Origin: a virus
Lineage: Duplodnaviria > Caudoviricetes
Reading direction: 5' to 3' (one strand)
DNA: 64,000 nt
IMG/VR virus record: IMGVR_UViG_3300033142_001600
Location: 715 to 64,714 of that record
Part shown: piece by piece, positions 21,825 through 58,585 of the stretch
Layout: every line of letters starts with the position of its first letter
Numbering within the stretch: position 1 is the first letter of the stretch
Notes under the pieces: model-generated
The model's input: the letters and a program-made list of their open reading frames with translations, nothing else
Databases searched by the model: none
Told to the model about the DNA's origin: nothing
Position numbers and translations under genes: made by a program

Positions 21825-22598
21825 ATGTATTCAAACAAGTTAATCGTAGCACTAAAACACAAAGGTAAAATTTTAAGAGAACGTTCAGGTTTTGTATCCC
21901 TTCCATTTAATTCTGAGTATTCATTACTTGTAAAAAATCTCAATACCAGAAAAGTATCAGTTAATATTTCTATAGATAGTGAGGATGTTCTTAACAGCAA
22001 CTCTTTATTAGTTTATCCTGATTCTGAAACAGAACTGAAAGGTTTTATGGATGGTATGACAGCTAAGAATAAGTTTAAGTTTATCCAAAAAACAAAAAAA
22101 ATAAGTGATTATAGAGGAGACAAAATAGACGATGGATTAATCAGAGTAGAGTTTGCATTTGAAAAAGAAAAACCTGAGATAGTTCATAACCATCACGTAT
22201 GCCATAATAAAGATGCTTGGTATTGGTCTCAAATTCCTCGGAGATTATATCGTCATAGAGAGCCTCTTTGGTCAAACAGTAGTGTAAAATGTAGTTTTAA
22301 TTCTGGTAATAACGCTGCGGATGTTATGGAATCAAATACTTTATATAGTAATAATTCTTTTAATGATGATGGAATAACAGTAAAAGGTTCCGAAATAAAC
22401 CAAGATTTTAATTATGGTAATATTGATGAATTAGAACAAAGCAATGTAATGATTATTAAATTGCGTGGTGAAGAAAATAGTGGAACACTTGTTAGAAAAC
22501 CTGTGACAGTCAGAACTAAGCTAGTTTGTTCAACATGTGGAAAGAAATCAAGATCTGATTTAAAATATTGTTCTAGATGCGGAACGTTTTTAAATTAA
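21825..22598 (+). CDS. hypothetical protein with C-terminal Zn-ribbon
   Basis: AGGAG RBS; CSTCG...CSRCG. Confidence 0.75.
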   Translation: MYSNKLIVALKHKGKILRERSGFVSLPFNSEYSLLVKNLNTRKVSVNISIDSEDVLNSNSLLVYPDSETELKGFMDGMTAKNKFKFIQKTKKISDYRGDKIDDGLIRVEFAFEKEKPEIVHNHHVCHNKDAWYWSQIPRRLYRHREPLWSNSSVKCSFNSGNNAADVMESNTLYSNNSFNDDGITVKGSEINQDFNYGNIDELEQSNVMIIKLRGEENSGTLVRKPVTVRTKLVCSTCGKKSRSDLKYCSRCGTFLN

Positions 22599-22619
22599 AA
22601 ACGATAGGAGATGATAAAT

Positions 22620-22754
22620 ATGCCTAAAAGAGATGGAACAGGTCCTTCTAGTAAAAGTAGAGGACCACGAAACGGTCAGGGTGGGAGTAAAGGTCGAAAT
22701 AATAGAGGAGGTCTTGGCTCTAGATCCGGGGGTAGAAAAGGTAACTGTAAGTAA
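22620..22754 (+). CDS. Gly/Arg-rich small protein, DUF5320-like (not in ORF track)
   Basis: AGGAG RBS; MPKRDGTGP N-terminus. Confidence 0.65.
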   Translation: MPKRDGTGPSSKSRGPRNGQGGSKGRNNRGGLGSRSGGRKGNCK

Positions 22755-22763
22755 AATAAGATT

Positions 22764-22779
22764 TGGCATAGAAATTGCA
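22764..22779 (+). promoter_or_regulatory. sigma54-type promoter motif
   Basis: TGGCATAGAAATTGCA. Confidence 0.78.
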
Positions 22780-22781
22780 AT

Positions 22782-22813
22782 ACCTCTTAGCATATATTGT
22801 TAAGAGGTTTTTT
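22782..22813 (+). terminator. intrinsic terminator overlapping the predicted start of the next transcript
   Basis: ACCTCTTAGCA-TATAT-TGTTAAGAGGT followed by T-tract. Confidence 0.7.
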
Positions 22814-23090
22814 CATTTTAAGGAGTGTATATAATGATATTAATTTTTGAACAAGATACAAGAACGTTTATTAGTGGAAACACACATTTTTATTGTTTCT
22901 TAAAAAGTTATGACTTTGTTTGGAAACCTTTATTTTCTAAAAAGGAATGGGAAAAAGGTAAGCACACACGGAAAATAAGCTGGGGTATTTGGAGTTTATC
23001 ATATTACCCTGAAAAAAATTTAGATAGTTTTTTTGAAAGTGTAACTAAAAAAAATACAAGGCGATACTACGGACGGGCATACTAAAATCT

Positions 23091-23106
23091 TGGCATAAAA
23101 CATGCA
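23091..23106 (+). promoter_or_regulatory. sigma54-type promoter motif
   Basis: TGGCATAAAACATGCA. Confidence 0.7.
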
Positions 23107-23130
23107 AGTACTTATTAGAAGAGGTGAAAC

Positions 23131-23889
23131 ATGGAAAAAGAAACCATTATAGAAAATAAAGATGAAGAAAAAGAAGAACTATTATGTTTACTTGATTCCT
23201 CATATCCGTTACTTCAAAGGTTTAGAGATGCTTGTTCAGGTACTTATAAACATTCTCAGGCTGTGTCAGCTATGATTGAAAGCGTAAGTGTTGCCCTTAA
23301 GTTAGATGTTACGTTTATGAAGGTTGTAGCGATGTATCACGATATAGGTAAAATTAATAACCCTAAATTTTTTACAGAAAATCAATTAGAGAAAGATATT
23401 GATCCACACGAGCATTTAGATCCTTGGATAAGTTCTCAAATTATTTCTCGTCACGTTTCTGATTCTGTAAATATTTTACTAAACGATAAACATTTTTCTA
23501 GAAGAATGATAGAAATAATTAGTCAGCATCATGGAACTTCTGTAATTAAATATTTTTTTGATAGAGCAGAAAATAAAGAAGAAAAAGATTATAGATATAA
23601 ATGTACAAAACCTGATTCTATAGAGGCGGCTGTTTTAATGGTTTGTGATCGTTTAGAAGCCATGACAAGGTCACTAGTTCAAAATAATAAATATAGTAAT
23701 GATCCAATAGAAGTAGTAAATGATGTTATTAATGAATTATTAGAAGATGAACAGTTAGACGAGGTAACAATTAAACTTGGAGATTTAAAAAAGTTTAAAA
23801 CAGTATTAAACAAAGAATTAGAAGGAATGTATAGCAAAAGAATAGATTATGATAAATCTGATGGTGTAAAAAATGGTAAAGAAAACTAA
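23131..23889 (+). CDS. stand-alone HDIG domain of PgpH/7TM-HD family (cyclic-dinucleotide phosphodiesterase-like)
   Basis: PLL......GTY.HS, YHDIGK...P.FF.ENQ, PH, HV, QHHGT, YRY...KP...EAA.LM..D..EA..RS. Confidence 0.85.
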   Translation: MEKETIIENKDEEKEELLCLLDSSYPLLQRFRDACSGTYKHSQAVSAMIESVSVALKLDVTFMKVVAMYHDIGKINNPKFFTENQLEKDIDPHEHLDPWISSQIISRHVSDSVNILLNDKHFSRRMIEIISQHHGTSVIKYFFDRAENKEEKDYRYKCTKPDSIEAAVLMVCDRLEAMTRSLVQNNKYSNDPIEVVNDVINELLEDEQLDEVTIKLGDLKKFKTVLNKELEGMYSKRIDYDKSDGVKNGKEN

Positions 23890-24478
23890 TATAGCTTTTG
23901 ATATAGATAACGTTGTGTTGGACTTTGCTGAATGTTTTTTAAAAACAGCAAAGGAAAAATTTAAATTATTAAAAAATGTAGAATTATTTAATATAACTCG
24001 TTATCAGTTTTATGAATGCTTAGATATTTCTTATAAGGAATGTTTTGAAGTTGTTGACTATGTTTTAGACAACCCTTTTGAGTGTAAAATAAAAGCAGTG
24101 CCTGGAGCAGTAGAAAGTTTAACTCGTTTATCGAGATCTATGGGCTTAATTTTTGTAACTGCAAGAAAAGAAAAATTTAAAAAAACAACAAAAGAATCAT
24201 TATACTCTATATTACCAAATGTTAGCAAAGATAAAATCATAATTAAACACTGTAAAGGTAGTGAGAAATATATAATATTAAATAAATTAGGAATTGATTT
24301 TTTTATAGATGATCGTTCAAGAAATGTTCGTATTTTAAATAAAAAAGGAATTAAAACTTTTTTAATTAATAAGCCCTGGAACGCTAAAACGAGACCAGGT
24401 GATTCTTTTACAAGAATTGATACATGGAAAGAAATATCTAATTTAACAAAGGAGATACACAGTGGTAAAGCTATCTGA
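23873..24478 (+). CDS. HAD-family 5'(3')-nucleotidase-like phosphatase
   Basis: DIDNV, VTAR, K, FIDD, PWN motifs. Confidence 0.85.
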   Translation: MVKKTNIAFDIDNVVLDFAECFLKTAKEKFKLLKNVELFNITRYQFYECLDISYKECFEVVDYVLDNPFECKIKAVPGAVESLTRLSRSMGLIFVTARKEKFKKTTKESLYSILPNVSKDKIIIKHCKGSEKYIILNKLGIDFFIDDRSRNVRILNKKGIKTFLINKPWNAKTRPGDSFTRIDTWKEISNLTKEIHSGKAI

Positions 24479-25151
24479 TTTTCCTAAAATACAATGTCCA
24501 TTCCGCCGAAAAAATTTTAAGGTAAATGTGGAGGATTGGAGAAAGTATGGAAGAGAACTACAGTTGCGAACTCCAGAAGTGTATTTGGTAGTTAATGAAA
24601 TTAATCCTGGATATGAGTGGGTATTTGAGAGTGCCAATACCATCTGTACTGAAAAGCTGGATGGAACAAATGTCAAATTGTTAACTAAAAACGGTAGGTT
24701 AGAGGCAGTCCAGAATAGGAAAACTCCTATTGATCTTTTACAAATCATTAAAGGAAAAAATTTTATAATGGAAGGGGTTTTCCAGGCGATAGGTAAAGGG
24801 TATGTAAAGTTTGATGGAGAACAAGCGGGCGAGTTAATCGGGAAAAAATTACAAGGAAATCCTTATAAATTAGATACACACTTATGGTATCCGTTTGAAA
24901 AATGTATAAATCATTTAAGATATAAATCATTTCATGAGCATAAAAGAACATTTGACAACTGGAGTATGTGGTTTGAAAATTACTTAGTATCGCTTTTCGC
25001 TTCTAAGCGGGGCAATAAAGATGTATTTGCAGAAGGTGTTGTATTCTATAACTTAAAAAGAAGAGCAGAAGGAAAATCCTATACGGCAAAGATTCGTCGA
25101 GATATGTGGGAGTGGTTTTATTCAGATAAAATAGAAATATATAGGAGCTAA
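24462..25151 (+). CDS. RNA ligase-like nucleotidyltransferase
   Basis: TEKLDGTN motif I, GELIG.K.QGNPY, EGVV, AKIRR. Confidence 0.8.
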   Translation: MVKLSDFPKIQCPFRRKNFKVNVEDWRKYGRELQLRTPEVYLVVNEINPGYEWVFESANTICTEKLDGTNVKLLTKNGRLEAVQNRKTPIDLLQIIKGKNFIMEGVFQAIGKGYVKFDGEQAGELIGKKLQGNPYKLDTHLWYPFEKCINHLRYKSFHEHKRTFDNWSMWFENYLVSLFASKRGNKDVFAEGVVFYNLKRRAEGKSYTAKIRRDMWEWFYSDKIEIYRS

Positions 25152-25154
25152 TTA

Positions 25155-25727
25155 ATGTCTGATACAGGAATTTATTGGAAGGATGGTTGTGTGATAGCTG
25201 AAAGTGGCGATGTTAAAGTATACCAAACAAATTATGATTCATTTTTAGAAATTGGGCCAGCTCATACGTTGTGGGCGATGGGATCTGAAATTAAAGATTA
25301 TGAAAACCAACTTGGTAATCGCCCATTTGGAAATGTTTTGGAGATTGGGCTTGGCTTAGGTGTTGCAAGTAAGTATTTGTTATCGCTTGATAGAGTTAAA
25401 TCATTAACGACGATAGAGGCCAATGCGGGTGTTATAAAAGCATTTAATTATCTTAACATTCAATTAGATGAAAAACACGTAATATTTAATCTAGAAGGGT
25501 TAGACTACGTGAAGAGTATGGGTAACTATTTATACGATTTTATTTTTCTTGATTATTATACCTTGTTGGATGAAGAGACTCTACCAGATATAGAAGTAAT
25601 GGTACATTGGTGTAAAAAAATACTTAAGCCTGGTGGAAAGATCGTAGGATGGTATGATCGATTTACTCCTGATAATTTTACTGATTGGTTTAATGAAATA
25701 TTTGATTGTAATATGGTGTCAGAATGA
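25155..25727 (+). CDS. class I SAM-dependent methyltransferase-like protein
   Basis: VLEIGLGLG, TTIE, YDFIFLD, LKPGG. Confidence 0.8.
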   Translation: MSDTGIYWKDGCVIAESGDVKVYQTNYDSFLEIGPAHTLWAMGSEIKDYENQLGNRPFGNVLEIGLGLGVASKYLLSLDRVKSLTTIEANAGVIKAFNYLNIQLDEKHVIFNLEGLDYVKSMGNYLYDFIFLDYYTLLDEETLPDIEVMVHWCKKILKPGGKIVGWYDRFTPDNFTDWFNEIFDCNMVSE

Positions 25728-25937
25728 AAAAATTTAAGAAAGCAGTAGAAACTCATATAAAAAGTTTAGAGCTTGAACGAACTCTTTATGAAGTTAGATT
25801 AAAAGATTATCCTAAATCTTCATTTATGTATAAAGGTCTGTTTTTTGTAATAAAATGGTTAGAATTTAAAATAACTATTTGGGAAGTTTTCAATGGCATT
25901 TTGTTTAGCAGATAATTTTTATTTGGCTTAAATTTTT

Positions 25938-26234
25938 TTAAGTAAAAGTATAGTATCTATCTATTTTTTTTATTATGGTATGAAATGGTAAGTTTTCTTT
26001 ATATTTCTCAAGTTGATCAATCAGCACACTTGATCCTGTAAAAACTATATAATTAATATCATTTATCTTAAACTGAATAGTAGCATACAAAGAGTCCTGT
26101 TTCTTTTTGCTTTCCTTTACTTTGAAATCCAAAATAAGAATTTCCTGATTCAAGATATTTTCAATTTTTTTCTTATCGCCATCAAAAGCTTTTGTTTTTT
26201 CTGCAAAGTCTGAGAATTTTGGATATTCAGTCAT
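25938..26234 (-). CDS. small protein coupled to DGR RT (candidate accessory factor)
   Basis: overlaps RT stop; KFSDF...G.K..I..ILN.EI...FTGS.VL..QL....PF.T.I pattern recalled from genes next to phage DGR RTs. Confidence 0.75.
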   Translation of the reverse strand: MTEYPKFSDFAEKTKAFDGDKKKIENILNQEILILDFKVKESKKKQDSLYATIQFKINDINYIVFTGSSVLIDQLEKYKENLPFHTIIKKIDRYYTFT

Positions 26235-27285
26235 TAGTGTACCCCAAAGGATTATGAAGCTTATTTACTATACAAACATTGCCCACAATTTTTTTAATAT
26301 CATAATCAATATATAGTTTTTTCAATTTATAGCAATTTGCATATTTCATCCATCCCCAATAACTCATAATTCCGCTTAAGATGTTTATCGGAGTTAATGA
26401 ATAATATCTTTTTTTAATATAATTTATTCTTTGTTTAAATCTAACAGCTGTCCTCTTTCTTAAAAGAGTATAATCATGAAAAAACCGATAACCAAGAAAG
26501 TCTATTCCTCTTTTATCAATTGGAAATATTTGCCAATTAGTCTTTAACACAAGATTCAGATTAATATGTAGATAGTTAGATATTTCTTTTCTCAGCTCAC
26601 TTAAGTATTTTTTATCAGAATGCAATACACAAACGTCGTCGCAGTAGCGAAATGTGTATTTGCATCTTTTTTGTTCTTTTAGCCAATGATCTAATCCCGA
26701 CAAGTACAAATTACCAAAGTATTGGCTCAAGTAATTTCCGATAGGTACACCGCTTGCCGAATCAATAATAAGATCCAGTAGCCAAAGAACATTCTTATCC
26801 TTGATTTTTTTTCCGATGACTCTTTTTAAAATACCATGATCAACAGATGGGTAAAACTTGCGTATATCCATTTTAAGACAATATTTTGTATTTTCTCTGT
26901 CTTTAAGGGCTTTCTTAATTCGCTTAACGCCTTTATGAATTCCTCTGTTTTTTAATGATGAATAAGTATCTGTAATCAGTGTTTTTATCAATATAGGTTC
27001 TAATATGTTCATAATACAATGATGAATAATCCGATCAGGAAAGTAAGGGAGTTTGAAGATTTCTCTTTCTTTACCTTTATCTTTTTTTGTAAATACTTGA
27101 TACTCGGAGTTATGAAAGGTCTTATTTTTCAACATATTGTGAATTTTCATAAAATATTTTTCTGGATCAGCTTCTACCATTTTAACTTCCGAATAATGAG
27201 ATTTGCCTTTCTTGGCATTTTTATGCGCTAACCTGATGTTTTCGATGTCATACATTTTATGATATAAGTTTCCGTATCTTTTCAT
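26227..27285 (-). CDS. DGR reverse transcriptase
   Basis: MKRYGNL start, K.REI..LP..PDRI.HH, LKMDIRKFYPS, GVPIGNYLSQ (DGR SQ motif), RYCDD, GIDFLGY. Confidence 0.95.
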   Translation of the reverse strand: MKRYGNLYHKMYDIENIRLAHKNAKKGKSHYSEVKMVEADPEKYFMKIHNMLKNKTFHNSEYQVFTKKDKGKEREIFKLPYFPDRIIHHCIMNILEPILIKTLITDTYSSLKNRGIHKGVKRIKKALKDRENTKYCLKMDIRKFYPSVDHGILKRVIGKKIKDKNVLWLLDLIIDSASGVPIGNYLSQYFGNLYLSGLDHWLKEQKRCKYTFRYCDDVCVLHSDKKYLSELRKEISNYLHINLNLVLKTNWQIFPIDKRGIDFLGYRFFHDYTLLRKRTAVRFKQRINYIKKRYYSLTPINILSGIMSYWGWMKYANCYKLKKLYIDYDIKKIVGNVCIVNKLHNPLGYTND

Positions 27286-27451
27286 TTGTCTTGTTTTATC
27301 TCAGAGTCTTCAATTTCTTTACCAACACTTATGAGATTTATTTTATATTTTAGCAAGAGCTAAGGTTATCATAATTTAATACTTTAAAACAAGATAACTG
27401 GCCTGCGATATTCTGATTAGTGTTACCTGACGAATTATTCAGATTCCAATA
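27286..27451 (-). ncRNA. 3' part of DGR template repeat plus spacer
   Basis: six AAY codons in 57 nt (27395-27451), then ACCTTAGCTCTTGCTAAAA...GTGTTGGTA...GAAGACTC before the RT ATG. Confidence 0.7.
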
Positions 27452-29083
27452 AGCGACCCCCGCACACGCGCCACCACTACTCGCGCGACCGCCCAGCATA
27501 GCCACCCGCCAACCCCCAGATTGGTAATAATAATCAGTTATATACGTATTTGGATCACCGCCAACTGAAGCGGGCAGAAATCCTCTGGCAATCTGTTCAA
27601 GGGTTTTTTGATATCCGTTTGAACCAGGTAATACTATCCCAAGGTTGGTGTAATTAGTCCAAGTATTATCTGCAAAATTAGTATCATTATTGCAGACATG
27701 AACTTTGTGGTCATCTGCCCCCGTTGCCCCACCAATATTTATTCCATCTACCCATTTCCATACATGACCAAAAAGGTTTTCTATTCCTCTATAACTCATA
27801 TAAGAACCAAGAGCATTAGCCCCGTTATCAATAGCGCCAGAAGCATTACCCAAGCCATTTGACAGTCCTGTTTTTTCAATAGGATTATAACTAGATCGAT
27901 TTAACCAATTCGTACTTCCAAAGCTGGTTAAACCAGCACCTATCATACTTTGAGAATTCCAAGAAGCATATTCAACCAAATAAAATAATTGAATAGTTGA
28001 GATCAAATCATAATCTTGTTGTCTCCAGCCGGTTTCTCGATTACTCGCTACTGCCCTGAAATTAGCTCTTGTTCCTTGGTTTATAGGAGTTTTACTAGCA
28101 ACCGAACTTAATTTATCTCCAGTTGAGGCCACCCAATTTCTTTGAGTTTGAAGATATGCCCTGGGCGCATAATCTTCATCTGTGATTGCCTCATCAACTG
28201 TAAAAGATTGGTCTCCTGTAGAGGCTACTGTAAAGGTAGAGTTATTATGAGCTGAGCTTGATATAGTAATTTTATCCCCCACCTCTAATCTTGTATAGGG
28301 GTTTGTCATAGCAACTTCAAGCGAAGCTATGTGAACTGTACAACTTGACCCAGTTCCACCAGAGGTCGCAACTACTCCTGCCGTGTGACCATAGCCTTTT
28401 GTTGTCAATGTAATCGTGAGGACTTCCCCACTACCACCAATACTTGCGACAGTTACTGTGGCTCCGGTAGTCCCACCTGCTAAGGTCAAAACATCATCAA
28501 CAGAATATCCAGTCCCAGCCGCCGCTCCGACCATATCAACTGTTTTTACTGTGCCGGTTCTATGGATTATGGTTTTTGATGCAGAAATAAAGCCTACATT
28601 ATGGGCTAATTGATATACCCCGTTAGTATATCTTGAAGCGGATACGTCATAAAGAACGCCTTCATAAGCAGACATGTATCTATTCTTAACCCACTCGTCA
28701 TTTTTGTAGAAGGCGTCAAGACGAGTAGCCCCATTAAATTGTTCTTTCGATATTAGATAATGGTGTTTTGAATTCGCATACCAATACTTTAGCCAACCTT
28801 GCGGAACTTCCACCATTACTTGGCCGTCAGCCCCAGTAAGAACGGAAGGGGTGACCATGTCTTCTTTCTTTGTGCGGTCAGTGGCCCCGGTATAATACTG
28901 GACTGCCCCAGCATCATTCAGAAGACAACCCCTCATCCTGGATTGTAAAGCCATAAGATTATCAGGTAATTTTGCCGCGGCAGGACAGCTTTGACCTTGG
29001 CCTATTCGTTCTAAAGTAGGGGAGCTTTGGCTTTCATCCCATACCACCCCCGTCGCCTGGAAATGTTTTCTGCGGTGTGCCAT
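27350..29083 (-). CDS. DGR target: putative receptor-binding protein with C-terminal CLec (Mtd-like) domain
   Basis: GQVMVEVP, MSAYEG, YRGIENLFGHVWKWVDG, WRVAMLGG...AG..YWNLNN C-terminus. Confidence 0.88.
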   Translation of the reverse strand: MAHRRKHFQATGVVWDESQSSPTLERIGQGQSCPAAAKLPDNLMALQSRMRGCLLNDAGAVQYYTGATDRTKKEDMVTPSVLTGADGQVMVEVPQGWLKYWYANSKHHYLISKEQFNGATRLDAFYKNDEWVKNRYMSAYEGVLYDVSASRYTNGVYQLAHNVGFISASKTIIHRTGTVKTVDMVGAAAGTGYSVDDVLTLAGGTTGATVTVASIGGSGEVLTITLTTKGYGHTAGVVATSGGTGSSCTVHIASLEVAMTNPYTRLEVGDKITISSSAHNNSTFTVASTGDQSFTVDEAITDEDYAPRAYLQTQRNWVASTGDKLSSVASKTPINQGTRANFRAVASNRETGWRQQDYDLISTIQLFYLVEYASWNSQSMIGAGLTSFGSTNWLNRSSYNPIEKTGLSNGLGNASGAIDNGANALGSYMSYRGIENLFGHVWKWVDGINIGGATGADDHKVHVCNNDTNFADNTWTNYTNLGIVLPGSNGYQKTLEQIARGFLPASVGGDPNTYITDYYYQSGGWRVAMLGGRASSGGACAGVAYWNLNNSSGNTNQNIAGQLSCFKVLNYDNLSSC

Positions 29084-29496
29084 TATTTCATCTCCGTTTT
29101 AGTTTTTCTTAAATCTTCATTTGTTTTTGCTGCTTCTATTTCAGCGATTTTTATATCTTTAGCCGATAATAAAACACTTATCTGTGAATTTTGATCTACT
29201 TCACCAAAAACGGTCTTGATATCGCCTATTGTTTTGCTCTCAATATTTTCTATTTTTATTTGTTTAGATTCTTCAAATGATCTTTCTTTAATAGCCCATA
29301 CTCGAAGAACTTTGTCTTTTTGAATCTCATAAGAATCTGACAAGGTTTGAGTAGTATAATCATGAATTGGAACTGCCTGTTCCTCTACAGGTAAATACCC
29401 ATGAGCAAGAAGTTTAGAAACGATTAGACTATCTGTATCAGAAATATTTTTAAATTTTATTATTTTATTTTTTTGTATTAATGCATATTTTTTCAC
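29083..29496 (-). CDS. putative tail fibre assembly/accessory protein
   Basis: position between fibre genes; GYLPV...P..D..TQ pattern. Confidence 0.55.
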   Translation of the reverse strand: MKKYALIQKNKIIKFKNISDTDSLIVSKLLAHGYLPVEEQAVPIHDYTTQTLSDSYEIQKDKVLRVWAIKERSFEESKQIKIENIESKTIGDIKTVFGEVDQNSQISVLLSAKDIKIAEIEAAKTNEDLRKTKTEMK

Positions 29497-29556
29497 TACA
29501 CGTCTCCTAAAGGTTTCAGCAAAATTTTTTGCGCGCTAAGAAATTTCCACAATTTT

Positions 29557-31911
29557 CTACCAAGCTGCTACGGCACCAGATAGTTTATATTGTATTGTAC
29601 AGCCAAATAAAAACCCATCTTCCGCGCAGGAATCTACACCATCTGTATTTCGATAAACTTCAAAGAGAATCAAATCGCCGAGTGAAGGAGTTCCACCAAC
29701 GGTAAGTGCTGGAGTTGCCGCAGTAGTTTGTAAATCAGCCCCATCGTCTGCTAAAAGAGTATCGCTTATAATTTGAGCAGTACCTAAAGCAATATCTATC
29801 ACATCACTATCAGATAAAGCACGTGCTTTTATACCAAATTCTACAGTGTCACCTGCTGTGCTACCTGTTGCTGAAGACCAATCAAATTTTACTTTTAAAG
29901 TTCCTAAATCCCAATTTTCAGGCATTTTAAGTTTAAATTGCACTCTTTCTTTTGTTGCACCAGCATCAAAAGCAAAGTGATCCATATCTATATCATTCGT
30001 GCTATATTCTTTTGTTCCTTGAAGAGGGCTAGATGTTGTACAAGGAACCATAGCAGCGGCATCTATATAAGTTGTTTCATAAGTATCTGATCCGCTAATT
30101 GTAATTTCGTCCTCTGCAGAACGTGTAATGTCAATATTATCGCCGCCAACAAAATTCAATATATCGTTCGAAGTTATAGCGTCTTTTGTAACACCACCAA
30201 CTGCAAAACTCCAACTTGAATAATTATCTTTACTATCAATGTTGGTTTGAAGAGAACCTGAGATTGTATCAACCTCACTTTCAGTGTAATATCTATTATC
30301 GTGGGTATGTATACTACAATCATTACTATCTGTTAAATCTGTACGTTGAGCAGAGGTTAAATGATAATACTGCTCTTCTATTCCACCCTGTAATCCTGAT
30401 AAATCATTATGAATTACTGCTGTAGTAATATTAAACGTGGTTGTTTGTATCATTTGAATCTCGTTAAAAGCTTCTACACCGCAATCTATAATTATTCTAC
30501 CAATTAACGCCCCAAATACATCAATAAAATCTTCTACATTTGGAACAGTAGAATTTTCTATAGCTGTTAATGTGCCGTTATCTTGCCCATATACAACATA
30601 AACATGACCGTCGTCTGGGTGAACAAATACCCAATCGCATTTATACTTATTACAGGTGCTTAATCCAGAGGTTATATTATTGTAATTATTTACGTCTATT
30701 TCTGTTTGGTCATCATTGTATATCCAATTAGAACCGTCATAATAAACATAAGTAAATCTACCAGAATCGCTTGTATCAAATTTTGAGAAATCGATCTCAT
30801 TAATGCCTTTGTAAAAATGTCCAGCAGCTATAGAAAAGTGTTTACTACCCTCATCCGTTATTTGGATTTCAGAACACATTTCCCAAAGTCTAATGTGCTC
30901 TATTCTTCTATGTAATTTAGCAATACCATTATTTAGCCGATAGCCCCCAGAAGTCCAATGTATTAAATTATTATAAGAACTTTTAATAAATTTACCTAAT
31001 GGTATGTCTGTAGTTCTATTTGGTTTTGATTCTTGTAAAACTATTTGTGGGTTATTGCTATTATACTGTAAAACTACTCTATAAATAGTTCCAGAAGCTG
31101 TTATAGTAATGTTATCTTGCTCGTCTACATTAAAATATTTTAACTCGCCACTTTCACTATCTGTTGTTCTTAATAAAGCGGTGCCTGCACCAACTTTAAC
31201 AGTGCCACTATTTGTGCCAGAAGATAAAGTAAAACCTGTTAATCTTTGTGGGGATAGTGGGCCATCAATATAATTATTTTTATTGGTTGTTATGGTAGAG
31301 TTTATACTCCCAGATATTGTGTCAACTTCAGATTCTGTATAATACCGGTTATCATGCGCATGTCCAATATCAGATTTTCCGTCTATGTCGGTTTGAAGAT
31401 TACCTGAAAGTGTGGTTTGTGAAGCCGAAGACGCAAATCCAGTATGGCCTGCAGATGCATAATCAAGATTATTTAAGGCTGAGTGGTCTGTTGTTCCCTC
31501 GACGCCTGTGGAACCACTGATTGTAATTTCATCATCAGCGGAACGTGTGATAGTGATGTTGTTGCCGCTAACAAAGTTTAATTCATCTCCAGAAGCAATA
31601 CTATCTTTTGTAACACCATCAACAGCAAAATTCCAATTAGAGTAGTTATCTTTGCCATCAATATCAGTTTTAAGAGAACCGGAGATAACATTAACCTCAG
31701 CCCCTGTATAATAACGAGTATCTAGTTGTCCAGTATTAAGGTCTGTTTTAGTATAATATCTGGCATCTCCTCTTGTGTTTGTATGATATTGAGTATGATC
31801 GTCATCTGATAATCCTGTTAAATCCCCATGATCACTAATTGTACCAGAAAGAACAGTAGAGACTGTATAATAATCTAAATTTTGACTAATTGGATTATAT
31901 GTGTATGGCAT
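29557..31911 (-). CDS. tail fibre-like virion protein with internal repeats
   Basis: repeated H.HDNRYYTESEVDTISGS and KDNYS.W.FAV.GVTKD units; H..L.GL..DDH.QY. Confidence 0.75.
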   Translation of the reverse strand: MPYTYNPISQNLDYYTVSTVLSGTISDHGDLTGLSDDDHTQYHTNTRGDARYYTKTDLNTGQLDTRYYTGAEVNVISGSLKTDIDGKDNYSNWNFAVDGVTKDSIASGDELNFVSGNNITITRSADDEITISGSTGVEGTTDHSALNNLDYASAGHTGFASSASQTTLSGNLQTDIDGKSDIGHAHDNRYYTESEVDTISGSINSTITTNKNNYIDGPLSPQRLTGFTLSSGTNSGTVKVGAGTALLRTTDSESGELKYFNVDEQDNITITASGTIYRVVLQYNSNNPQIVLQESKPNRTTDIPLGKFIKSSYNNLIHWTSGGYRLNNGIAKLHRRIEHIRLWEMCSEIQITDEGSKHFSIAAGHFYKGINEIDFSKFDTSDSGRFTYVYYDGSNWIYNDDQTEIDVNNYNNITSGLSTCNKYKCDWVFVHPDDGHVYVVYGQDNGTLTAIENSTVPNVEDFIDVFGALIGRIIIDCGVEAFNEIQMIQTTTFNITTAVIHNDLSGLQGGIEEQYYHLTSAQRTDLTDSNDCSIHTHDNRYYTESEVDTISGSLQTNIDSKDNYSSWSFAVGGVTKDAITSNDILNFVGGDNIDITRSAEDEITISGSDTYETTYIDAAAMVPCTTSSPLQGTKEYSTNDIDMDHFAFDAGATKERVQFKLKMPENWDLGTLKVKFDWSSATGSTAGDTVEFGIKARALSDSDVIDIALGTAQIISDTLLADDGADLQTTAATPALTVGGTPSLGDLILFEVYRNTDGVDSCAEDGFLFGCTIQYKLSGAVAAW

Positions 31912-31967
31912 TTTTAATTCCTTGTTTTTATGTTTTCTATAATTAGTTAGGTAAGTTTATGGTATGT

Positions 31968-31983
31968 TGGCATAGTTATTGCA
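31968..31983 (+). promoter_or_regulatory. sigma54-type promoter motif
   Basis: TGGCATAGTTATTGCA. Confidence 0.8.
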
Positions 31984-32013
31984 TTGTTTTACAACTAAGC
32001 AGGAGCGTTAAAA

Positions 32014-32388
32014 ATGAGTAGAGAATTATTATTTTCAGTGACTAAAAAGGATCTCGAAGTTCAAGTTTTTAGGGCGGGTGGAAAAGGAGGACAAAGACAA
32101 AATAAAGTTAGTACAGGTGTCCGTATAATTCATAAAGATTCTGGCGCTGTAGGTGAAAGTAGAAATGAACGAAGCCAATATCAAAACAAAAAAATAGCAT
32201 TTAAAAGACTTAACAAGAATCCTAAATTTAAAATTTGGTTAAATCAAAAAGCATACGAAATAACGAATAAAATAAACATAGAAAAAGAATTAAAGAAAGC
32301 AATGTCTCCAGAAAACCTTCTTGTCGAAATTAAAAACGAAAAAGGCGAATGGCTAGATATAAAGGAGAAAACAGATGTCAAAAAATAA
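32014..32388 (+). CDS. RF-1 domain (GGQ) peptidyl-tRNA hydrolase, ribosome-rescue type
   Basis: RAGGKGGQ..NK..TGVR..H, RSQ.QNK..A; no stop-codon recognition domain. Confidence 0.88.
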   Translation: MSRELLFSVTKKDLEVQVFRAGGKGGQRQNKVSTGVRIIHKDSGAVGESRNERSQYQNKKIAFKRLNKNPKFKIWLNQKAYEITNKINIEKELKKAMSPENLLVEIKNEKGEWLDIKEKTDVKK

Positions 32389-32749
32389 AACACCAACACA
32401 AGCGGTAAAGTTTTTTTGTAAGAATTTTTGTTGTTGTGGAAACTCATCTATGCTTAAATCTTGTAATGGTAAAGTACTTTTTTCTAAAAAACTTTGCCCA
32501 CTTTTTTCTTATAGACTAGGAAAAGGACGAGTTTCTGTTAAAAAAATTCGTCAGCACTGTTTAAACTTTTGTATGAATGGTTCAAAATCAGCCGTTAGAG
32601 AATGTCAATCTGAAAATTGTAGTTTGCATCCGTTTAGGCTTGGGACAAATCCTAATTATGGCAAGAAAGACCGTAAAGTAAAAAGTAAGGCAGCAAAGAA
32701 GTTAGGGCTTGCTAAATTGGGTTTGAAAAGTAAAATAAATAAAAAATAA
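32375..32749 (+). CDS. Cys-rich protein with duplicated domain
   Basis: two C..FC.....C...C.L...RLG units. Confidence 0.65.
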   Translation: MSKNKTPTQAVKFFCKNFCCCGNSSMLKSCNGKVLFSKKLCPLFSYRLGKGRVSVKKIRQHCLNFCMNGSKSAVRECQSENCSLHPFRLGTNPNYGKKDRKVKSKAAKKLGLAKLGLKSKINKK

Positions 32750-32750
32750 G

Positions 32751-32972
32751 GTGTATATTTTTATGAGTGACTCTGTTAAACACCCAAAACATTATACATC
32801 TCATCCAAGTGGGGTCGAATGTATTGAAATAACAAAACATATGAACTTCTGTCTCGGTAATGCTTTTAAATATATTTGGCGAGCAGATTTAAAAAATAGT
32901 GCCATTGAAGATTTACGTAAAGCTGTGTGGTATATTGAATGTGAAATTGAAAAGAGAGAACAGGATAGATAA
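32751..32972 (+). CDS. DUF3310 family protein
   Basis: V.HP.HY, ECIE, F.LGNA.KY.WRA..K...EDL.KA.WY. Confidence 0.88.
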   Translation: MYIFMSDSVKHPKHYTSHPSGVECIEITKHMNFCLGNAFKYIWRADLKNSAIEDLRKAVWYIECEIEKREQDR

Positions 32973-32974
32973 TT

Positions 32975-34103
32975 ATGGATAAGATCAAGTGCCCTAATTG
33001 CGGATTCGAATTCGAATTATCGCAAACATTGTTTTCTGAGTTAGAAAATGAATTAAAAGATAAACTTAAAGAAAAAACTAAAGCCTTAGAAATTTCTTCG
33101 GCGGCCGAAAAAAAGAAACTTAAAGAAGAACTTTTAAATGAGAAACAAGAATTCATTAATGGTGTGGAGAAAGATACAACCAAAAGACTACAAGAAGAGT
33201 TTGATTTAAAAGCTAAACTTTCTCAAGATCAGTTAACAACAATAAATGATAAATATCTGCAGTCGCAGCAAAAGATTCAGAAACTTTTAGTAGAAACAGC
33301 CAACAGTCGCCAAATTATAGAGGAAGAGCGAGTACGTTTGTTGGAAGAAAACAATAAAGTTAAAAAAGAATTAGAAATAAAAATACAAACTAAAGTAGAT
33401 GAAGAGCACAGGTTAAAAACTTTAGAACGTGATAAAGTTATAGAAGATCAAAAAAAGAAATTATTAGAAATGCAAAGAAAATTGGAAACCGGATCTTCAC
33501 AATTAGTTGGTGAGGTGCTTGAACTCGATATAGAAACTCGCTTACAAAGTATATACCCATTAGACAAAGTAAAAGAGGTTTTAAAGGGGATAGCCGGTGC
33601 TGATGTAAAGCAAACTGTAATGAATAATTTCTCGCAAGAATGTGGTTTAATACTTATTGAAACAAAGAATACAAAAGAGTTTGCTAAAAAATGGATAAAT
33701 AAATTAAGAGATGATAACTACTGTTTTACCAACGGGTGTAAAGTATTTTACAATACAAGAAGGTATAATTATTTGTAATTATGATTTGTTTTTTGGTTTA
33801 TTAGATGTCTTTAGACATAAATTGATAGATATGCACGGGTTAAGATTATCCAATCAGAATAAATCTAGCAGACTCAGTATATTGTATGATCATGTTACGG
33901 ATCAAAAATTTATAGATAAGATTCAACTTCTTTATAATTTGTATTCTGATATGAAAAACTCATTAGAAGCTGAAAAAAACTCTATTAAACGGGCATGGAA
34001 TAAGCGGGAAGTAGAATTAAAAATATTTTCAGATAATGTTGATTCTATTTGGTCGGAATTAAACGCTATAACAAATGTATTTCCAGAGGGGTTTGGTCAA
34101 TAG
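32975..34103 (+). pseudogene. DUF2130 coiled-coil protein split by frameshift
   Basis: IKCPNCG, GSSQL.GEVLE, GAD, IETK.TK in ORF 32975; continuation TTVLP.G...G..IC in ORF 33711. Confidence 0.7.
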
Positions 34104-35274: not shown

Positions 35275-35351
35275 TCCAGAGTAGCTCAGTTGGTAGTAGC
35301 GTACGGCTGTTAACCGTGTTGTCGGGGGTTCGAATCCCTCCTCTGGAGCCA
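35275..35351 (+). tRNA. tRNA-Asn(GTT)
   Basis: TCCAGAG/CTCTGGA acceptor, CT-GTT-AA loop, GTTCGAATC, encoded CCA. Confidence 0.93.
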
Positions 35352-35353
35352 AA

Positions 35354-35429
35354 GCCGGCATAGTTTAGTTTGGTAAAATATCTGATTTGTACTCAGATGT
35401 CAGGGGTTCGAGGCCTCTTGCTGGCTCCA
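35354..35429 (+). tRNA. tRNA-Thr(TGT)
   Basis: GCCGGCA/TGCTGGC acceptor, TCTGA-TTTGTAC-TCAGA arm, GTTCGA, encoded CCA. Confidence 0.85.
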
Positions 35430-36660: not shown

Positions 36661-38560
36661 CTCCTTTTAGTGTGAATTTATAATTACCGCAATCCCAAAT
36701 TCTATCATAGTTATTATTAAGCATATTTTGGTATTCTGTTAAATTTGGATTAAAGTTAGGTAACAGTTTTGATAATTCAGATTTTCTATATTTGAATCTA
36801 TGTTCTAAATATGTTTTGCCTCTTCTGAAATACCAATAATTAGGCGTAGATGGTTTTAATTGTTTGAAGCCAAGTTTACCATAGAAAGAGCCATTGCTGT
36901 ATCTGATATCTGCGAAAGTGTACAAATTATTAAATAAATAGTTGTTTTTAAAATAAGATAGAAATCTTGATGCCATCCCAGGAATGTAATAATTTAATAA
37001 ACAGCAAAATCTTGATAATTCATAATTATTAGATTTTTGGTCTTTTCTTCCTTTTGCTATGGACGGTTTAGCAAAGGTTATTACAGAAATTAAGTTGTTG
37101 TTATAAAATGCACCTAGTTTTATGGAGCTATTACAGTAGCCTTGTATGTGATTTTTATTTAAAAATTTGCGGGCTAAAGATGCTGTAATGGTTTCTATTG
37201 TAGTTTGTCTTGCTCCACATAGTTTATCGAGTTTACCTAGTTTTGCACATAGTATAGATTTAACTATCTCCTGTTTTTCTAACCACTCATTTTCAAAAAC
37301 ATGTATTAGTTGAATGTTTTTTTCTTTACACATAATAGTTTTGTTAAGGTGATAGTTTTTATCTTTTTTTAGTCTTTCACTGTGCCAATGTATACCGTCA
37401 TATTCTATTGCCATATTAAAATCCGGTAAGTATATATCTAGTTCAACAGGAGGTATTATGGTTCTTGTGTTTGTTACTATGTTTGTTATGTTTAAATTCC
37501 TTATAAAGTTTAAAATATCAAGTTCACCGTGTGATTTTTTGATAGGGTAACATCCATAACACCGTAGTATCTCAGGGTTTGTTCTGTGAAATATAGGATC
37601 AGCAACTAATGTTTCTCCTATCCATCCACATTTTTTACATTTTATTTTTACTAATCTATTTTTTGGTTCTGATAATATTTCGAAGTTTTCTTTTTGTGTA
37701 TTTAAAAAAGCGTTTTGTTTTTCTAATACCCTTTCTTTTTTTTGTGTTATTATCTCATTAGATTCTAAGTATGAGGGTACGCCGTGTCTGTTTATCATTG
37801 AGTTCTTTATTTTATTTTTAACGTCTGTTGCTTGATTCGCGTATTCAGTGCCATATTTAGTTAGACATGTTTTTTTACTTTTTTCTTTTATTTTAGCTGA
37901 CTGAAAAGGGTTTTTAACCCCATTGTTTTTTAAACATGTTTGTTCGGCCTTATTTTTTAGTGTTTTATTTTTAAATGCGTGTTCAGTACCATATTTTTTT
38001 AACATTGTTTGCTTACGTTTTTCTTTAGTGTTTTTTTCCTGTAAAGTACAAACTACCCCATATTTTTTTAGATTTGATTGTTTAAGTTTTTCTTTGACAA
38101 TATCAGACTGCATCGGGTTTTCGGTGCCATATTTTTTTAAACATGTTTGTTTAATCTTATTTTTTATTTCATTACATTTTAAGTTGGTCGTTTCCCCATA
38201 CCTATTTAACATTGTTTGTTTAATTTTATTTTTTATTTTCGGTGTTTGCATAGGGTATTCTACGCCGTATTTTTTTAAGTTTGATTTTTTTATTATATTT
38301 ACGTTGTAAATATTGGAACATTTTTTACTACAAAATTTTTGATAGCCTTTTGTTATACCTTTAAACCTTGTAGGTTTTCCACAATTGGCACATATTCCTT
38401 CTTTATCTTGTTTTAAGTATTTATCATAGTAATCTTTACATGACACATTTTTATGTTTGTGACGTAGGTGTGTTCCTATACATTTATGTGTTGTATTACA
38501 TATTTTACATGTAACCATTTTATTAAATTCCTTTATATTGTTGTCTGTTTGGAAAATCAT
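36653..38560 (-). CDS. putative homing endonuclease (KYG repeats + PD-(D/E)xK + GNAT-like C-domain); likely start 38518
   Basis: K.T.LKKYG repeats; ELDIYLP...AIEYDG.HWH; YDRIWDCG; lies between nrdD and nrdG. Confidence 0.8.
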   Translation of the reverse strand: MIFQTDNNIKEFNKMVTCKICNTTHKCIGTHLRHKHKNVSCKDYYDKYLKQDKEGICANCGKPTRFKGITKGYQKFCSKKCSNIYNVNIIKKSNLKKYGVEYPMQTPKIKNKIKQTMLNRYGETTNLKCNEIKNKIKQTCLKKYGTENPMQSDIVKEKLKQSNLKKYGVVCTLQEKNTKEKRKQTMLKKYGTEHAFKNKTLKNKAEQTCLKNNGVKNPFQSAKIKEKSKKTCLTKYGTEYANQATDVKNKIKNSMINRHGVPSYLESNEIITQKKERVLEKQNAFLNTQKENFEILSEPKNRLVKIKCKKCGWIGETLVADPIFHRTNPEILRCYGCYPIKKSHGELDILNFIRNLNITNIVTNTRTIIPPVELDIYLPDFNMAIEYDGIHWHSERLKKDKNYHLNKTIMCKEKNIQLIHVFENEWLEKQEIVKSILCAKLGKLDKLCGARQTTIETITASLARKFLNKNHIQGYCNSSIKLGAFYNNNLISVITFAKPSIAKGRKDQKSNNYELSRFCCLLNYYIPGMASRFLSYFKNNYLFNNLYTFADIRYSNGSFYGKLGFKQLKPSTPNYWYFRRGKTYLEHRFKYRKSELSKLLPNFNPNLTEYQNMLNNNYDRIWDCGNYKFTLKGDV

Positions 38561-46385: not shown

Positions 46386-47648
46386 ATGTCAAAAAGAAAA
46401 ACGGAAGAAGACTATTACGAGTTAGCAGAAGGTCGTGGGTTTAAATGGCTTGGTGATGTGTTGCCTAAAAATACAGATATACCAACCGAATGGGTGTGTA
46501 GTAATACGCATAAATGGCTAGCGTCATATCATAATATACGCAATGGCAGTGGGTGTCCATATTGTGCCGGTCTTGTTAAAAAAGTAGAAAAAGATTATTA
46601 TAATTTAGCAAATAAATTTGGTTTTATTTGGATTGGTGAAAAACTGCCTAAAAATGTTATGACTAAAACTTGGTGGGAATGTAAGAAGGGGCATGAGTGG
46701 AAAGCTACATATAGTGGAATACAGCGAGGGGGCGGGTGTCCTTATTGTTCTAAAAAAATAAGGAAAACAAGAAATGATTATCACATCTTAGCTAATAAAA
46801 ACAATTTTAGGTGGTTAGGTAAAAGTTTGCCTAAAAATGTTAAAACTAAAACACTATGGGAAGATTTGTCAGATGGGAGATTATTCAGATTATCTTATAG
46901 TAGTATCTTGGGAAGTAGTGGAAAACCATATTGTTCTAAAAGGCTTATAAAAAATACCAGTGATTATCATAAGTTAGCCGAGTTTCGTAAATTTAAATGG
47001 GTTGGTAAAGATTTACCGAAAAATGCTATGACTAAGACTTTGTGGGAATGCGAAAGGGGACATAAATGGTTGGCAAAATATAATGATATATTTTGTAACG
47101 GTAGTGGTTGTCCTTATTGTGCTAAATGCGCAAAAAAAGTTGAGATAGATTATTATAGTTTGGCAAACAAATATAACTTTGTATGGATAGGTGAAAAGTT
47201 ACCAAAAAATACGAATATAAAAACAAAATGGCTGTGTTTAAAGTGTGGGCATATTCGTGAAGTAACATATAGTAGTATTCAACAAGGTAAGGGTTGCCCA
47301 TACTGTAAGAATATGATTAATGGCGTGTTAGTATCAAAGCCGCAAATAAAACTAAATGATTTACTTTGTGGAAGTTTGAACTACCCAGAAGGGAGATACC
47401 ATATTGATGTTGCTATAATGCGAGAAAGTCAAAAAATAGCAGTGGAGTATGATTGCTGGTATTGGCATAATGGAAATGAAGAACGTGATGTTAAGAGAGA
47501 TAGACTTTTGATATTTCATGGATGGAAAGTATTACGCGTAAAGTCAGGAAGATTGTTGCCAACACGAAAACAACTAAAGACAGCTATTAATTATTTGTTG
47601 AAAACTAATAACAAGATTTATAATCTATATTTGGAAGATTGGAAGTAA
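46386..47648 (+). CDS. Zn-ribbon repeat protein with C-terminal DUF559/Vsr-like nuclease
   Basis: five ~61-aa repeats W.C..GH.W.A.Y..I..G.GCPYC; IDVA...AVEYD..YWH...D..RD..L...GW.VLR. Confidence 0.8.
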   Translation: MSKRKTEEDYYELAEGRGFKWLGDVLPKNTDIPTEWVCSNTHKWLASYHNIRNGSGCPYCAGLVKKVEKDYYNLANKFGFIWIGEKLPKNVMTKTWWECKKGHEWKATYSGIQRGGGCPYCSKKIRKTRNDYHILANKNNFRWLGKSLPKNVKTKTLWEDLSDGRLFRLSYSSILGSSGKPYCSKRLIKNTSDYHKLAEFRKFKWVGKDLPKNAMTKTLWECERGHKWLAKYNDIFCNGSGCPYCAKCAKKVEIDYYSLANKYNFVWIGEKLPKNTNIKTKWLCLKCGHIREVTYSSIQQGKGCPYCKNMINGVLVSKPQIKLNDLLCGSLNYPEGRYHIDVAIMRESQKIAVEYDCWYWHNGNEERDVKRDRLLIFHGWKVLRVKSGRLLPTRKQLKTAINYLLKTNNKIYNLYLEDWK

Positions 47649-50886: not shown

Positions 50887-52603
50887 AAAAGAAATAAAGT
50901 GTGCCATATGCGGAAGAAAGTGTAAAGGCACAAGAGGGTTGGCTTTTCATTTAAGATCACACAGTGTATCCAATGAAGAGTATTATCTTACATATATTTG
51001 TCCCGATTCAAATAGATGTGTTATTTGTGGACAGCCTACTAAGTTTAACAAGTTGTCTAAGGGTTTTTATAAAACATGTTGTAAAGAATGCAGAATAAAA
51101 TCATTCAAAATGGAATATAATAAAACATGTATGGAAAGATACGGGGTTAATAGCCCAATGAAGTTGGATATTTTCAAAGAAAAAGTCAAAAACACTATGA
51201 TTAAAAATTACGGTGTAGATAATATAGCAAAAAGTAAAAAAATACAAAATATTAAAAAAGAAAATCATTTAAAAAAATATGGTGTAGAAGCCCCTGCTCA
51301 ACGAGATAGTATTAAAGCTAAAATGGCAGCAACTAATATAGAGAGGTATGGTGTAGCTTTTGCGTCAAAAACAGATAAAGTTAAAGAGAAAGTGAAACAA
51401 ACAAATTTAGATCGTTATGGGGTTTGTGCTCCCCTTCAGAGTAGCAGTGTTCTTGATAAAATGAAAAAGACATGTTTAAAAAGGTATGGTGTAGAAAATC
51501 CAGGACAATTACGCAAAACAATAGATGTAAATAAAGAGTTAATGCTGGATAAGATTATAAGTGGTGTGAGATTACAGTATTGTAGTATGTTAGATATTTC
51601 TAGTTACATTTCTACTAATAAAGATAATAAATATAAATTTAAATGTAATTATTGTGATAACATTTTTTTTTCACATTTAGAAAATGGGCATCAGCCAAAA
51701 TGTCCGATATGTTTTAACGGAAGTTTGATAGAACAATATATTTCTGAAATTTTGTCAATGTTTAATATAAAATATATAACAAACGATAGAAGCATTATTA
51801 GCCCATATGAATTAGATTTTTATCTTCCTGATTATAATATAGCAATAGAATGTAATGGTATCTACTGGCATGCAGAAAACCAGCTGGCAAATAGAAAATT
51901 ATTACCATGTAGTATAAGAAATTATCATTTATTTAAATATAATATGTGTAAAAAAAATGGAATAAAATTATTACAGTTTTTTGAAGATGAGATACTAGAT
52001 AAAAAAGTTATAGTAGAATCGATGATTTTAAATAGACTTGGGTTATCAGAAAAACTATGCGGAGCAAGACAATGTAATATAGTAGATATTAGTGCTAAAA
52101 TAGCAAATAAATTTTTGAACGATAATCATATTCATGGTAGAAATTATGGAAGTACAGATTCAATGGGTGCCATATATAAAGGTAATTTGGTTTCGGTAAT
52201 GTCATTTAAAAAAGGAAACATATCGAGAAAATCTACACAAATGGAGTTAGATAGATTTTGTACTAAAACACATTATTATATTCCAGGCATTTCTTCAAAA
52301 ATGTTTAGTCGTTTTTTAAAAACCAGACAGGTGTTTGGTAATATCCTCACGTATTCTGATTTACGTTTTGGTGTCGGTAGTGTGTATAAATATTTAGGTT
52401 TTAATTTTATTAGTCAATCTCTACCAAATTACTTTTATGTAATAGGTACGAAACGTAAACATAGGTTTTCATATAGAAAATCTGTTTTAAAAAATAAATT
52501 AAGAACATTTGACCCAACTTTAACGGAATATCAAAATATGTTAAGTAACGGGTATGATAGGGTGTGGGATTGTGGTCATTTTAAATTTTTATATGGTAAA
52601 TAA
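50861..52603 (+). CDS. putative homing endonuclease (paralog of 36653 and 61230); likely start 50876
   Basis: RYGV repeats; ELDFYLP...AIECNG.YWH; GYDRVWDCG. Confidence 0.8.
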   Translation: MRMTLMPNRKEIKCAICGRKCKGTRGLAFHLRSHSVSNEEYYLTYICPDSNRCVICGQPTKFNKLSKGFYKTCCKECRIKSFKMEYNKTCMERYGVNSPMKLDIFKEKVKNTMIKNYGVDNIAKSKKIQNIKKENHLKKYGVEAPAQRDSIKAKMAATNIERYGVAFASKTDKVKEKVKQTNLDRYGVCAPLQSSSVLDKMKKTCLKRYGVENPGQLRKTIDVNKELMLDKIISGVRLQYCSMLDISSYISTNKDNKYKFKCNYCDNIFFSHLENGHQPKCPICFNGSLIEQYISEILSMFNIKYITNDRSIISPYELDFYLPDYNIAIECNGIYWHAENQLANRKLLPCSIRNYHLFKYNMCKKNGIKLLQFFEDEILDKKVIVESMILNRLGLSEKLCGARQCNIVDISAKIANKFLNDNHIHGRNYGSTDSMGAIYKGNLVSVMSFKKGNISRKSTQMELDRFCTKTHYYIPGISSKMFSRFLKTRQVFGNILTYSDLRFGVGSVYKYLGFNFISQSLPNYFYVIGTKRKHRFSYRKSVLKNKLRTFDPTLTEYQNMLSNGYDRVWDCGHFKFLYGK

Positions 52604-57870: not shown

Positions 57871-57984
57871 TTGTGGGGTCAAACTTGATAGAGATGTCAA
57901 TGCCGCAATAAGTTTTAAAATGGCCGCAAGTTCTGCGGTGACAGCCTGTGGACACGGGGGCGCTGATCATGTTTTACATGATGA
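57871..57984 (+). repeat. 114-bp direct repeat copy 1, tnpB 3'-end relic
   Basis: identical to 58472-58585; translates CGVKLDRDVNAAI...TACG. Confidence 0.88.
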
Positions 57985-58471: not shown

Positions 58472-58585
58472 TTGTGGGGTCAAACTTGATAGAGATGTCA
58501 ATGCCGCAATAAGTTTTAAAATGGCCGCAAGTTCTGCGGTGACAGCCTGTGGACACGGGGGCGCTGATCATGTTTTACATGATGA
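58472..58585 (+). repeat. 114-bp direct repeat copy 2, tnpB 3'-end relic
   Basis: identical to 57871-57984. Confidence 0.88.

Follow-up and report, generated by a model that had tools for sequence, protein, structure and literature searches.

The diversity-generating retroelement (DGR) described here lies on the minus strand of a 64,000-nucleotide (nt) stretch of viral DNA (Duplodnaviria; Caudoviricetes), referred to below as the window, that comprises positions 715 to 64,714 of the IMG/VR virus record IMGVR_UViG_3300033142_001600 and makes up nearly all of this 64,714-nt linear record. The record itself is linear and fragmentary, comes from a collection of viruses derived from metagenomes and has a CheckV completeness of 18% and no terminal direct repeat of at least 15 nt. 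The element is a canonical phage DGR of a well-populated family in which, reading along the minus strand, a tail-protein target with a C-terminal variable repeat (VR) is followed by a template repeat (TR), an RT-17 RNA, a reverse transcriptase (RT) and a small conserved open reading frame (ORF); coordinates are collected in Table 1. While the relatives of this element carry VR and TR as two separate copies, the record contains a single repeat, and in what follows we present the sequence comparisons that confirm this repeat to be a hybrid, VR-type in its 5' part and TR-type in its 3' part, and consider how such a fusion may have come about.

Table 1. Features of the retroelement and of the two ORFs upstream of its target gene, in window coordinates (aa, amino acids).
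Feature	Coordinates	Strand	Length	Character
ORF	31911..29557	minus	784 aa	
ORF	29496..29083	minus	137 aa	
Target gene as assembled	29083..27350	minus	577 aa	phage tail protein with C-terminal variable region
5' part of the single hybrid repeat	27454..27514	minus		VR-type
Crossover interval	27400..27453	minus		TR-like: A-rich, six AAY codons
End of the repeat, then TR 3' flank	27368..27399	minus		TR-type end (CAG = Gln, against CGG = Arg in VRs)
RT-17 RNA motif	27286..27367	minus		Rfam RF03020, structured RNA between TR and RT
Reverse transcriptase	27285..26227	minus	352 aa	DGR-type, intact
Conserved ORF directly 3' of the RT	26234..25938	minus	98 aa	

The retroelement and its single repeat

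The RT at 26227..27285 belongs to the DGR clade. It matches RVT_1 (E 1.3e-14) and phrog_1423 (E 1.2e-119), its closest database RTs are annotated as phage RTs in a DGR context, and its translation contains YCDD as well as IGNYLSQ, the latter conforming to the IGxxxSQ ([I/L/V]GxxxSQ) motif that is a hallmark of DGR RTs. The RNA motif adjoining the RT start at 27285 is a member of the RT-17 family both by its position upstream of the RT and by its score, 43.5 bits against a gathering score of 40.4 for a match extending over model positions 1-95 of 95; RT-17 is also found between TR and RT in 7 of the 8 relatives that were scanned. Each is the sole example of its kind in the record, and with one RT and one RT-17 only, a second DGR providing a TR in trans from within the record is ruled out.

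The protein encoded by the target gene matches phrog_5302, 'tail protein' (E 4.2e-89), and no Pfam family. A profile built from its C-terminal 280 aa together with 27 relatives matches PDB entry 5vf4_A, a DGR variable protein (E 5.4e-5), and the match takes in the terminal VR segment ending in G-x-R-x-x-F. An AlphaFold2 (AF2) model of the last 280 aa is poor, with a mean predicted local distance difference test (pLDDT) score of 41.7.

It is the composition of the repeat at the 3' end of this gene that first sets the locus apart. Positions 27452-27511 on the minus strand (WRVAMLGGRASSGGACAGVA) hold 3 A, 32 G, 12 C and 13 T in 60 nt, in a gene that is 29.6% A overall and averages 17.7 A per 60-nt window. 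Only 11 windows of this length, all overlapping and with starts at 27510-27520 on the minus strand, contain three or fewer A in the entire 64 kb, and there are none on the plus strand. The adjacent segment at 27395-27451 (YWNLNNSSGNTNQNIAGQL) is of the opposite character, with 20 A in 57 nt and six AAY codons. The adenine counts of both segments and the six AAY codons were given in an earlier note made from the DNA letters alone, and a recount reproduces them exactly. The hybrid sequence is free of N.

The same note had found no second copy of the repeat in the window, and this stands for the whole record as well: a scan of all 64,714 nt on both strands, tolerant of mismatches at template adenines, returned only the self-match and 8 chance matches in A-rich DNA, with 25-26 of 50 bases identical. 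A VR/TR pair finder run over 22001-33000 of the window gave no pair, and no family or pair covers 27395-27520 among the repeats listed (the largest 20 direct families and the 25 longest inverted pairs).

Comparison of the repeat with related loci

With the RT as query we collected 160 related loci, L001-L160, 80 from viral contigs and 80 from metagenome contigs, with RTs that are 45-82% identical to that of the window and target domains that are 37-75% identical over the last 280 aa. In all 110 loci with at least 550 nt of sequence upstream of the RT a separate VR and a separate TR are present, 109 of them detected by a pair script through adenine-specific mismatches and one, L090, whose VR is very heavily mutated, by alignment; judged by target C-terminus the 110 loci (L090 included) amount to 85 distinct ones. 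The two repeats are ∼125 nt each and are offset by 152-271 nt, the exception being L159, for which the sole pair detected has an offset of 597 nt; where a locus has two VRs, an additional pair is seen at 564-666 nt. Of the 109 loci tabulated, 102 have 93-155 nt between the end of the TR and the start of the RT, and 7 have 209-234 nt. In the remaining 50 loci the contig ends less than 550 nt upstream of the RT, and a partial pair is still visible in 17 of these.

Logan contigs from four sequencing runs (5-6% of sampled words) also proved to be relatives, with 28 of 40 records less than 90% alike. None of the Logan contig pieces listed spans the repeat stretch; one contig from run X4 (record 21) contains the stretch corresponding to 27440-27465 twice, 155 letters apart, and represents a relative in which the two copies are separate. 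Exact-pattern scans did not uncover the same phage again, returning only L001 from viral contigs and nothing from genome contigs.

Alignments with the relatives divide the locus at ∼27453: from here down to the RT start the sequence follows the TR side of the relatives and above this position the VR side. Adenine counts in 31 non-redundant close relatives lead to the same division. In the 54-nt 3' segment homologous to 27398-27451 the TRs have 16-21 A and the VRs 2-14, compared to 19 in the window, and in the homologous 60-nt 5' segment the TRs have 6-21 A and the VRs 2-10, compared to 3 in the window, so that the 5' half of the hybrid lies within the range for VRs and outside that for TRs, with the reverse holding for the 3' half.

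The nearest relative, L001, provides a more local comparison. Between 27514 and 27454 the window differs from the L001 TR at 17 positions, 13 of them TR adenines, as against 10 mismatches, 3 on TR adenines, between 27453 and 27393. There is no mismatch at all in 27453-27426, and the TR flank and RT-17 RNA at 27392-27286 differ from L001 at 2 positions in 107 nt (98% identity). The longest exact run shared by the VR and TR of L001, 36 nt, is located at the place where the window switches, and the ∼107 nt separating the end of the repeat from the RT start correspond to the TR-to-RT spacing of the relatives.

The end of the reading frame carries the same signature. The terminal Gly-x-Arg has Arg in the VRs of 31 of the 31 close relatives, while at this place the TRs encode Gln in 23 of 31, with Arg in 4, Asn in 2, His in 1 and Leu in 1; some of these minority residues may reflect a slipped register in the script. 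The VRs of the relatives end in a specific manner, with Arg and then a stop within a few codons, in a region resembling the initiation of mutagenic homing (IMH) element; the window instead has CAG (Gln) and runs on into TR flank. In an alignment with 27 relatives, 24 stop at a shared end and the other three 3-4 residues later; the window has no stop there, extends 12 residues beyond the shared C-terminus and stops at 27350, 18 nt inside the RT-17 match, its last ∼15 codons being read from TR-type and TR-flank DNA. The remaining observations of the earlier note are borne out here: that CAG occupies the place of the G.R arginine (all 27 aligned relatives have Arg, and the window is the sole row with Gln), that the frame reads on into the spacer preceding the RT and, more generally, that a VR-like 5' part is joined to a TR-like 3' part ahead of that spacer.

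Comparison of the sequences thus confirms the VR-5'/TR-3' hybrid, and the record holds the product of one in-register VR × TR crossover. As the two halves, the TR-type flank and the TR-to-RT spacing show, what is absent from the record is one whole repeat period, consisting of the VR 3' end with Gly-x-Arg, the stop codon, the VR-TR spacer and the 5' half of the TR. The switch is bounded by 27454, the last VR-type base, and 27399, the first TR-only base. As the VRs of the relatives retain only 36% of template adenines in this segment, the switch probably took place near the 5' end of the interval, at ∼27440-27454. As a separate observation, the VR-type part is one codon longer at 27470-27480 on the minus strand (…SSGGACAG…) than in all 27 aligned relatives.

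Origin of the hybrid

Two explanations of the crossover, both among those put forward in the earlier note (as assembler collapse and as VR-TR recombination), merit serious attention, and we leave the cause between them while favoring the first, to which we attach about even confidence. In this first reading the record does not show the working phage genome, the crossover stemming from assembly or from chimeric or rare recombinant molecules, and the real phage would have a separate VR and TR like all of its relatives. The assembly path would enter through the VR, continue through the sequence identical in both repeats and exit on the TR side, skipping a loop whose VR 3' part would vary within the population; such behavior would be in keeping with the way de Bruijn assemblers work in general. 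Either the path through the population-variable 3' part of the VR would have been pruned or skipped, or chimeric or rare recombinant molecules would have offered the only unbroken path.

Several results point in this direction. The hybrid protein has Gln in place of the conserved Arg and the 12-residue extra tail, and since Arg is found in every one of the 31 VRs although 23 of the 31 TRs encode Gln, the Gln form is probably selected against. Neither the RT, the RT-17 RNA nor the downstream ORF shows any decay, so that a natural deletion that had become dominant would need to be very recent, and it would probably be harmful. The contigs of relatives also tend to end where TR and VR lie: in 29 of 100 distinct loci the contig terminates 150-500 nt upstream of the RT, compared to 14 of 100 for the same span downstream, showing that assemblers run into difficulty here. 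The fragmentary, metagenome-derived nature of the record and the 36-nt exact VR/TR identity of L001 at the switch point count in favor of this reading as well.

There are, however, a number of points that weigh against an artefact. The collapse is one that we infer from comparing sequences. A hybrid is seen in none of the 110 relatives, and assemblers usually break at this place rather than collapse it. The longest exact runs between VR and TR are short, 6-36 nt with a median of 12 in the 31 close relatives, and the run shared by VR and TR in the window is at most ∼54 nt. The assembler passed a 114-nt exact direct repeat, with a spacing of 601 nt, in another part of the record without collapsing it; this repeat (57871-57984 and 58472-58585 of the window, plus strand, contained in a 138-nt pair that is 95% identical) serves as an internal assembly control. 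Because it was traversed, this assembler would not be expected to produce a plain k-mer collapse over at most 54 nt, and an artefact therefore needs extra conditions, namely heterogeneity in the VR 3' part, chimeric reads or rare recombinants.

The second explanation, a genuine deletion that arose when the direct repeats VR and TR underwent homologous recombination or replication slipped from one to the other, and that has become dominant and has frozen the DGR, strikes us as possible but rather less probable. The hybrid is what would be expected of direct-repeat recombination, with the 5' part of the first repeat and the 3' part of the second joined in register, the switch falls at the stretch of 36-nt VR/TR identity of the nearest relative, the resolved 114-nt repeat speaks against simple collapse and the hybrid shows neither N nor any other sign of a forced join. 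On the other side, no such deletion occurs in the 110 related loci, a protein lacking the Arg found in all 31 VRs and longer by 12 residues is likely to be unfit, and the undecayed RT, RNA and small ORF require an event that is very recent and yet dominant. Were a dominant deletion nevertheless real, the locus would be a natural DGR inactivated by its own VR × TR recombination and caught soon afterwards, an example of how DGRs die and of what it costs to maintain template and target as direct repeats near one another.

Whichever of these holds, the element as written could not, on the evidence of its sequence, diversify its target, since there is no complete template and the sole repeat ends in TR-type rather than VR-type DNA. 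As described in the part of PMC3240598 available to us, the model for the BPP-1 DGR calls for a VR-specific IMH, mismatched to the TR, in the recipient, which sets the direction of transfer, and also for a structure within 24 bp downstream of the VR. No consistent hairpin follows the VR in 6 relatives that we inspected, where z-scores range from +0.99 to -2.0.

The earlier note had also raised the possibility that one locus is both template and target or templates remote targets, and here its suggestion fares poorly. A functional single repeat, either self-templating or acting as the TR of remote VRs in unsequenced regions of the genome, is in our estimation very improbable, even though the RT, the RT-17 RNA and the TR-type 3' part are intact and normally arranged and a record covering only ∼18% of the genome leaves room for remote targets. 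No other copy, and hence no other target-like copy, is present in the 64.7 kb, the repeat has a TR-type end and lacks the VR-type end of the targets of all relatives, in the BPP-1 model a recipient needs the VR-specific IMH and a sequence just past the VR (PMC3240598), and all 110 relatives have separate repeats. The distribution of adenines is also unfavorable. The half proximal to RT-17 retains all of them (19 A in 54 nt) and it is the distal half that is A-poor; if cDNA synthesis begins at the TR 3' end, this is the reverse of what self-templating should produce. A template that is also a target would be expected to lose adenines, and a synthetic system, so far as the portion of its description at hand goes (bioRxiv 10.64898/2026.07.21.739853), shows a mutated TR doing so when the template is rewritten as well. 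We see no evidence for a new, single-repeat mode of diversification.

Finally, the proposal that 27393-27514 is an ordinary VR with retained 3' adenines, its TR lying in unsequenced DNA, has next to no probability and is rejected because TR flank adjoins the repeat: the L001 VR does retain 14 of 19 template adenines in the homologous segment, so that A-richness alone is no proof of TR origin, but the DNA beyond the repeat is TR flank and RT-17 with 2 mismatches in 107 nt to the TR side of L001, there is no stop at the end shared by the family, Gln replaces the Arg common to all 27 aligned relatives and the repeat lies as far from the RT as do the TRs of the relatives.

As regards annotation, the last ∼15 codons of the target gene and its stop, as recorded, most likely differ from the real product of the phage. 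DGR finders that require a TR/VR pair will miss this element. The finding serves chiefly as a warning about the form that DGR loci can take in metagenome contigs assembled from short reads. That DGR detection is limited by misassembled or incomplete data is noted in general terms in those parts of two DGR surveys that we could consult (PMC11661182, PMC3521204). The DGR literature searched, which was in part accessible and did not extend to survey supplements (these may list incomplete cassettes), yielded no description of a VR/TR hybrid or of DGR self-inactivation by VR × TR recombination.

Accessory features and comparison with known systems

No avd gene (PF05635) is present in the record at E ≤ 1. 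DGRs without avd are on record, so that avd is not universal, according to the part of PMC5758913 that was available. The 98-aa ORF following the RT has a homologue in 58 of the 146 related loci whose sequence extends 400 nt or more beyond the RT, and these homologues start mostly 2-18 nt past the RT match. Its AF2 model (pLDDT 81.9) consists of five strands and one helix, and it has weak matches to OB-fold-like domains (best E 0.029). It may be a non-Avd, nucleic-acid-binding accessory protein of avd-less DGRs.

Two further observations concern the element itself. The TR flank and RT-17 RNA at 27286-27392 align with L001:2310-2414, and their near-identity (2 of 107 nt differ) despite RT proteins that are only 82% identical suggests either strong constraint on the RNA or a recent exchange of this piece. 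Among named phages, residues 10-529 of the target protein are best matched by a hypothetical protein of Methanosarcina virus MetMV (43% identity, query coverage 75%), which hints, at the level of sequence, at a tail-protein scaffold common with an archaeal virus.

The rest of the record contains several repeats and two RNA genes apart from the retroelement. Record bases 1-80, which precede the window, have several copies of a AAGCTTTAACAAG-like word, and a 33-nt exact direct repeat is located at record positions 638 and 682, 44 nt apart (record 638-714); these repeats at the start of the record may be iteron-like or related to a genome end. On the plus strand of the window, 46410-47234 comprises five copies of a coding unit at a spacing of 183-186 nt, in which Trp, Gly, Leu-Pro-Lys-Asn and Trp-Glu-Cys recur as a conserved pattern, the copies listed being 60-73% identical to the references. 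A run of 69-nt repeat units that are 60-78% alike occupies 37778-38320 of the same strand, parts of it complementary to 51369-51501 (inverted pairs I4, I7 and I10), and two adjoining tRNA genes (Rfam tRNA, 58.6 and 57.8 bits) are found at 35275-35426, also on the plus strand.

The BPP-1 DGR, with its mtd VR, TR, avd and brt, resembles the present system in having a tail or receptor-binding protein with a C-terminal VR and a TR upstream of a DGR-type RT. As in BPP-1, the TR/VR differences are adenine-specific, in all relatives, and the ends of VR and TR differ at fixed positions. Unlike BPP-1, the record has no avd that we could find, and the relatives leave no space for it between VR, TR and RT; the family has instead RT-17 between TR and RT and the 98-aa ORF past the RT. 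The 6 relatives also differ from BPP-1 in that a consistent hairpin after the VR was not found, and the present record has its VR and TR joined in a single hybrid.

A more distant comparison is with TaqVP (5VF4), a variable protein from a Thermus aquaticus DGR which, as given in the portion of the source seen, adopts a C-type lectin fold of the formylglycine-generating enzyme type; the profile match of the target C-terminus to this protein (E 5.4e-5) is distant and one of sequence only. With respect to RF03020, the match is full-length and adjoins the RT start, as in 7 of the 8 relatives that were scanned, the window differing in that the assembled target ORF enters RT-17 by 18 nt. A further comparison is with the large environmental phage family L001-L160, which has a phrog_1423 RT together with a phrog_5302 tail protein. 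It has two repeat copies in all 110 loci with sufficient upstream DNA, in contrast to the one hybrid of the window with its extra 5' codon relative to the 27 aligned members, and it shares with the window the gene order, the target domain, the RT-17 RNA and the TR peptide pattern YWNLNNSSGN..NQNI..Q.

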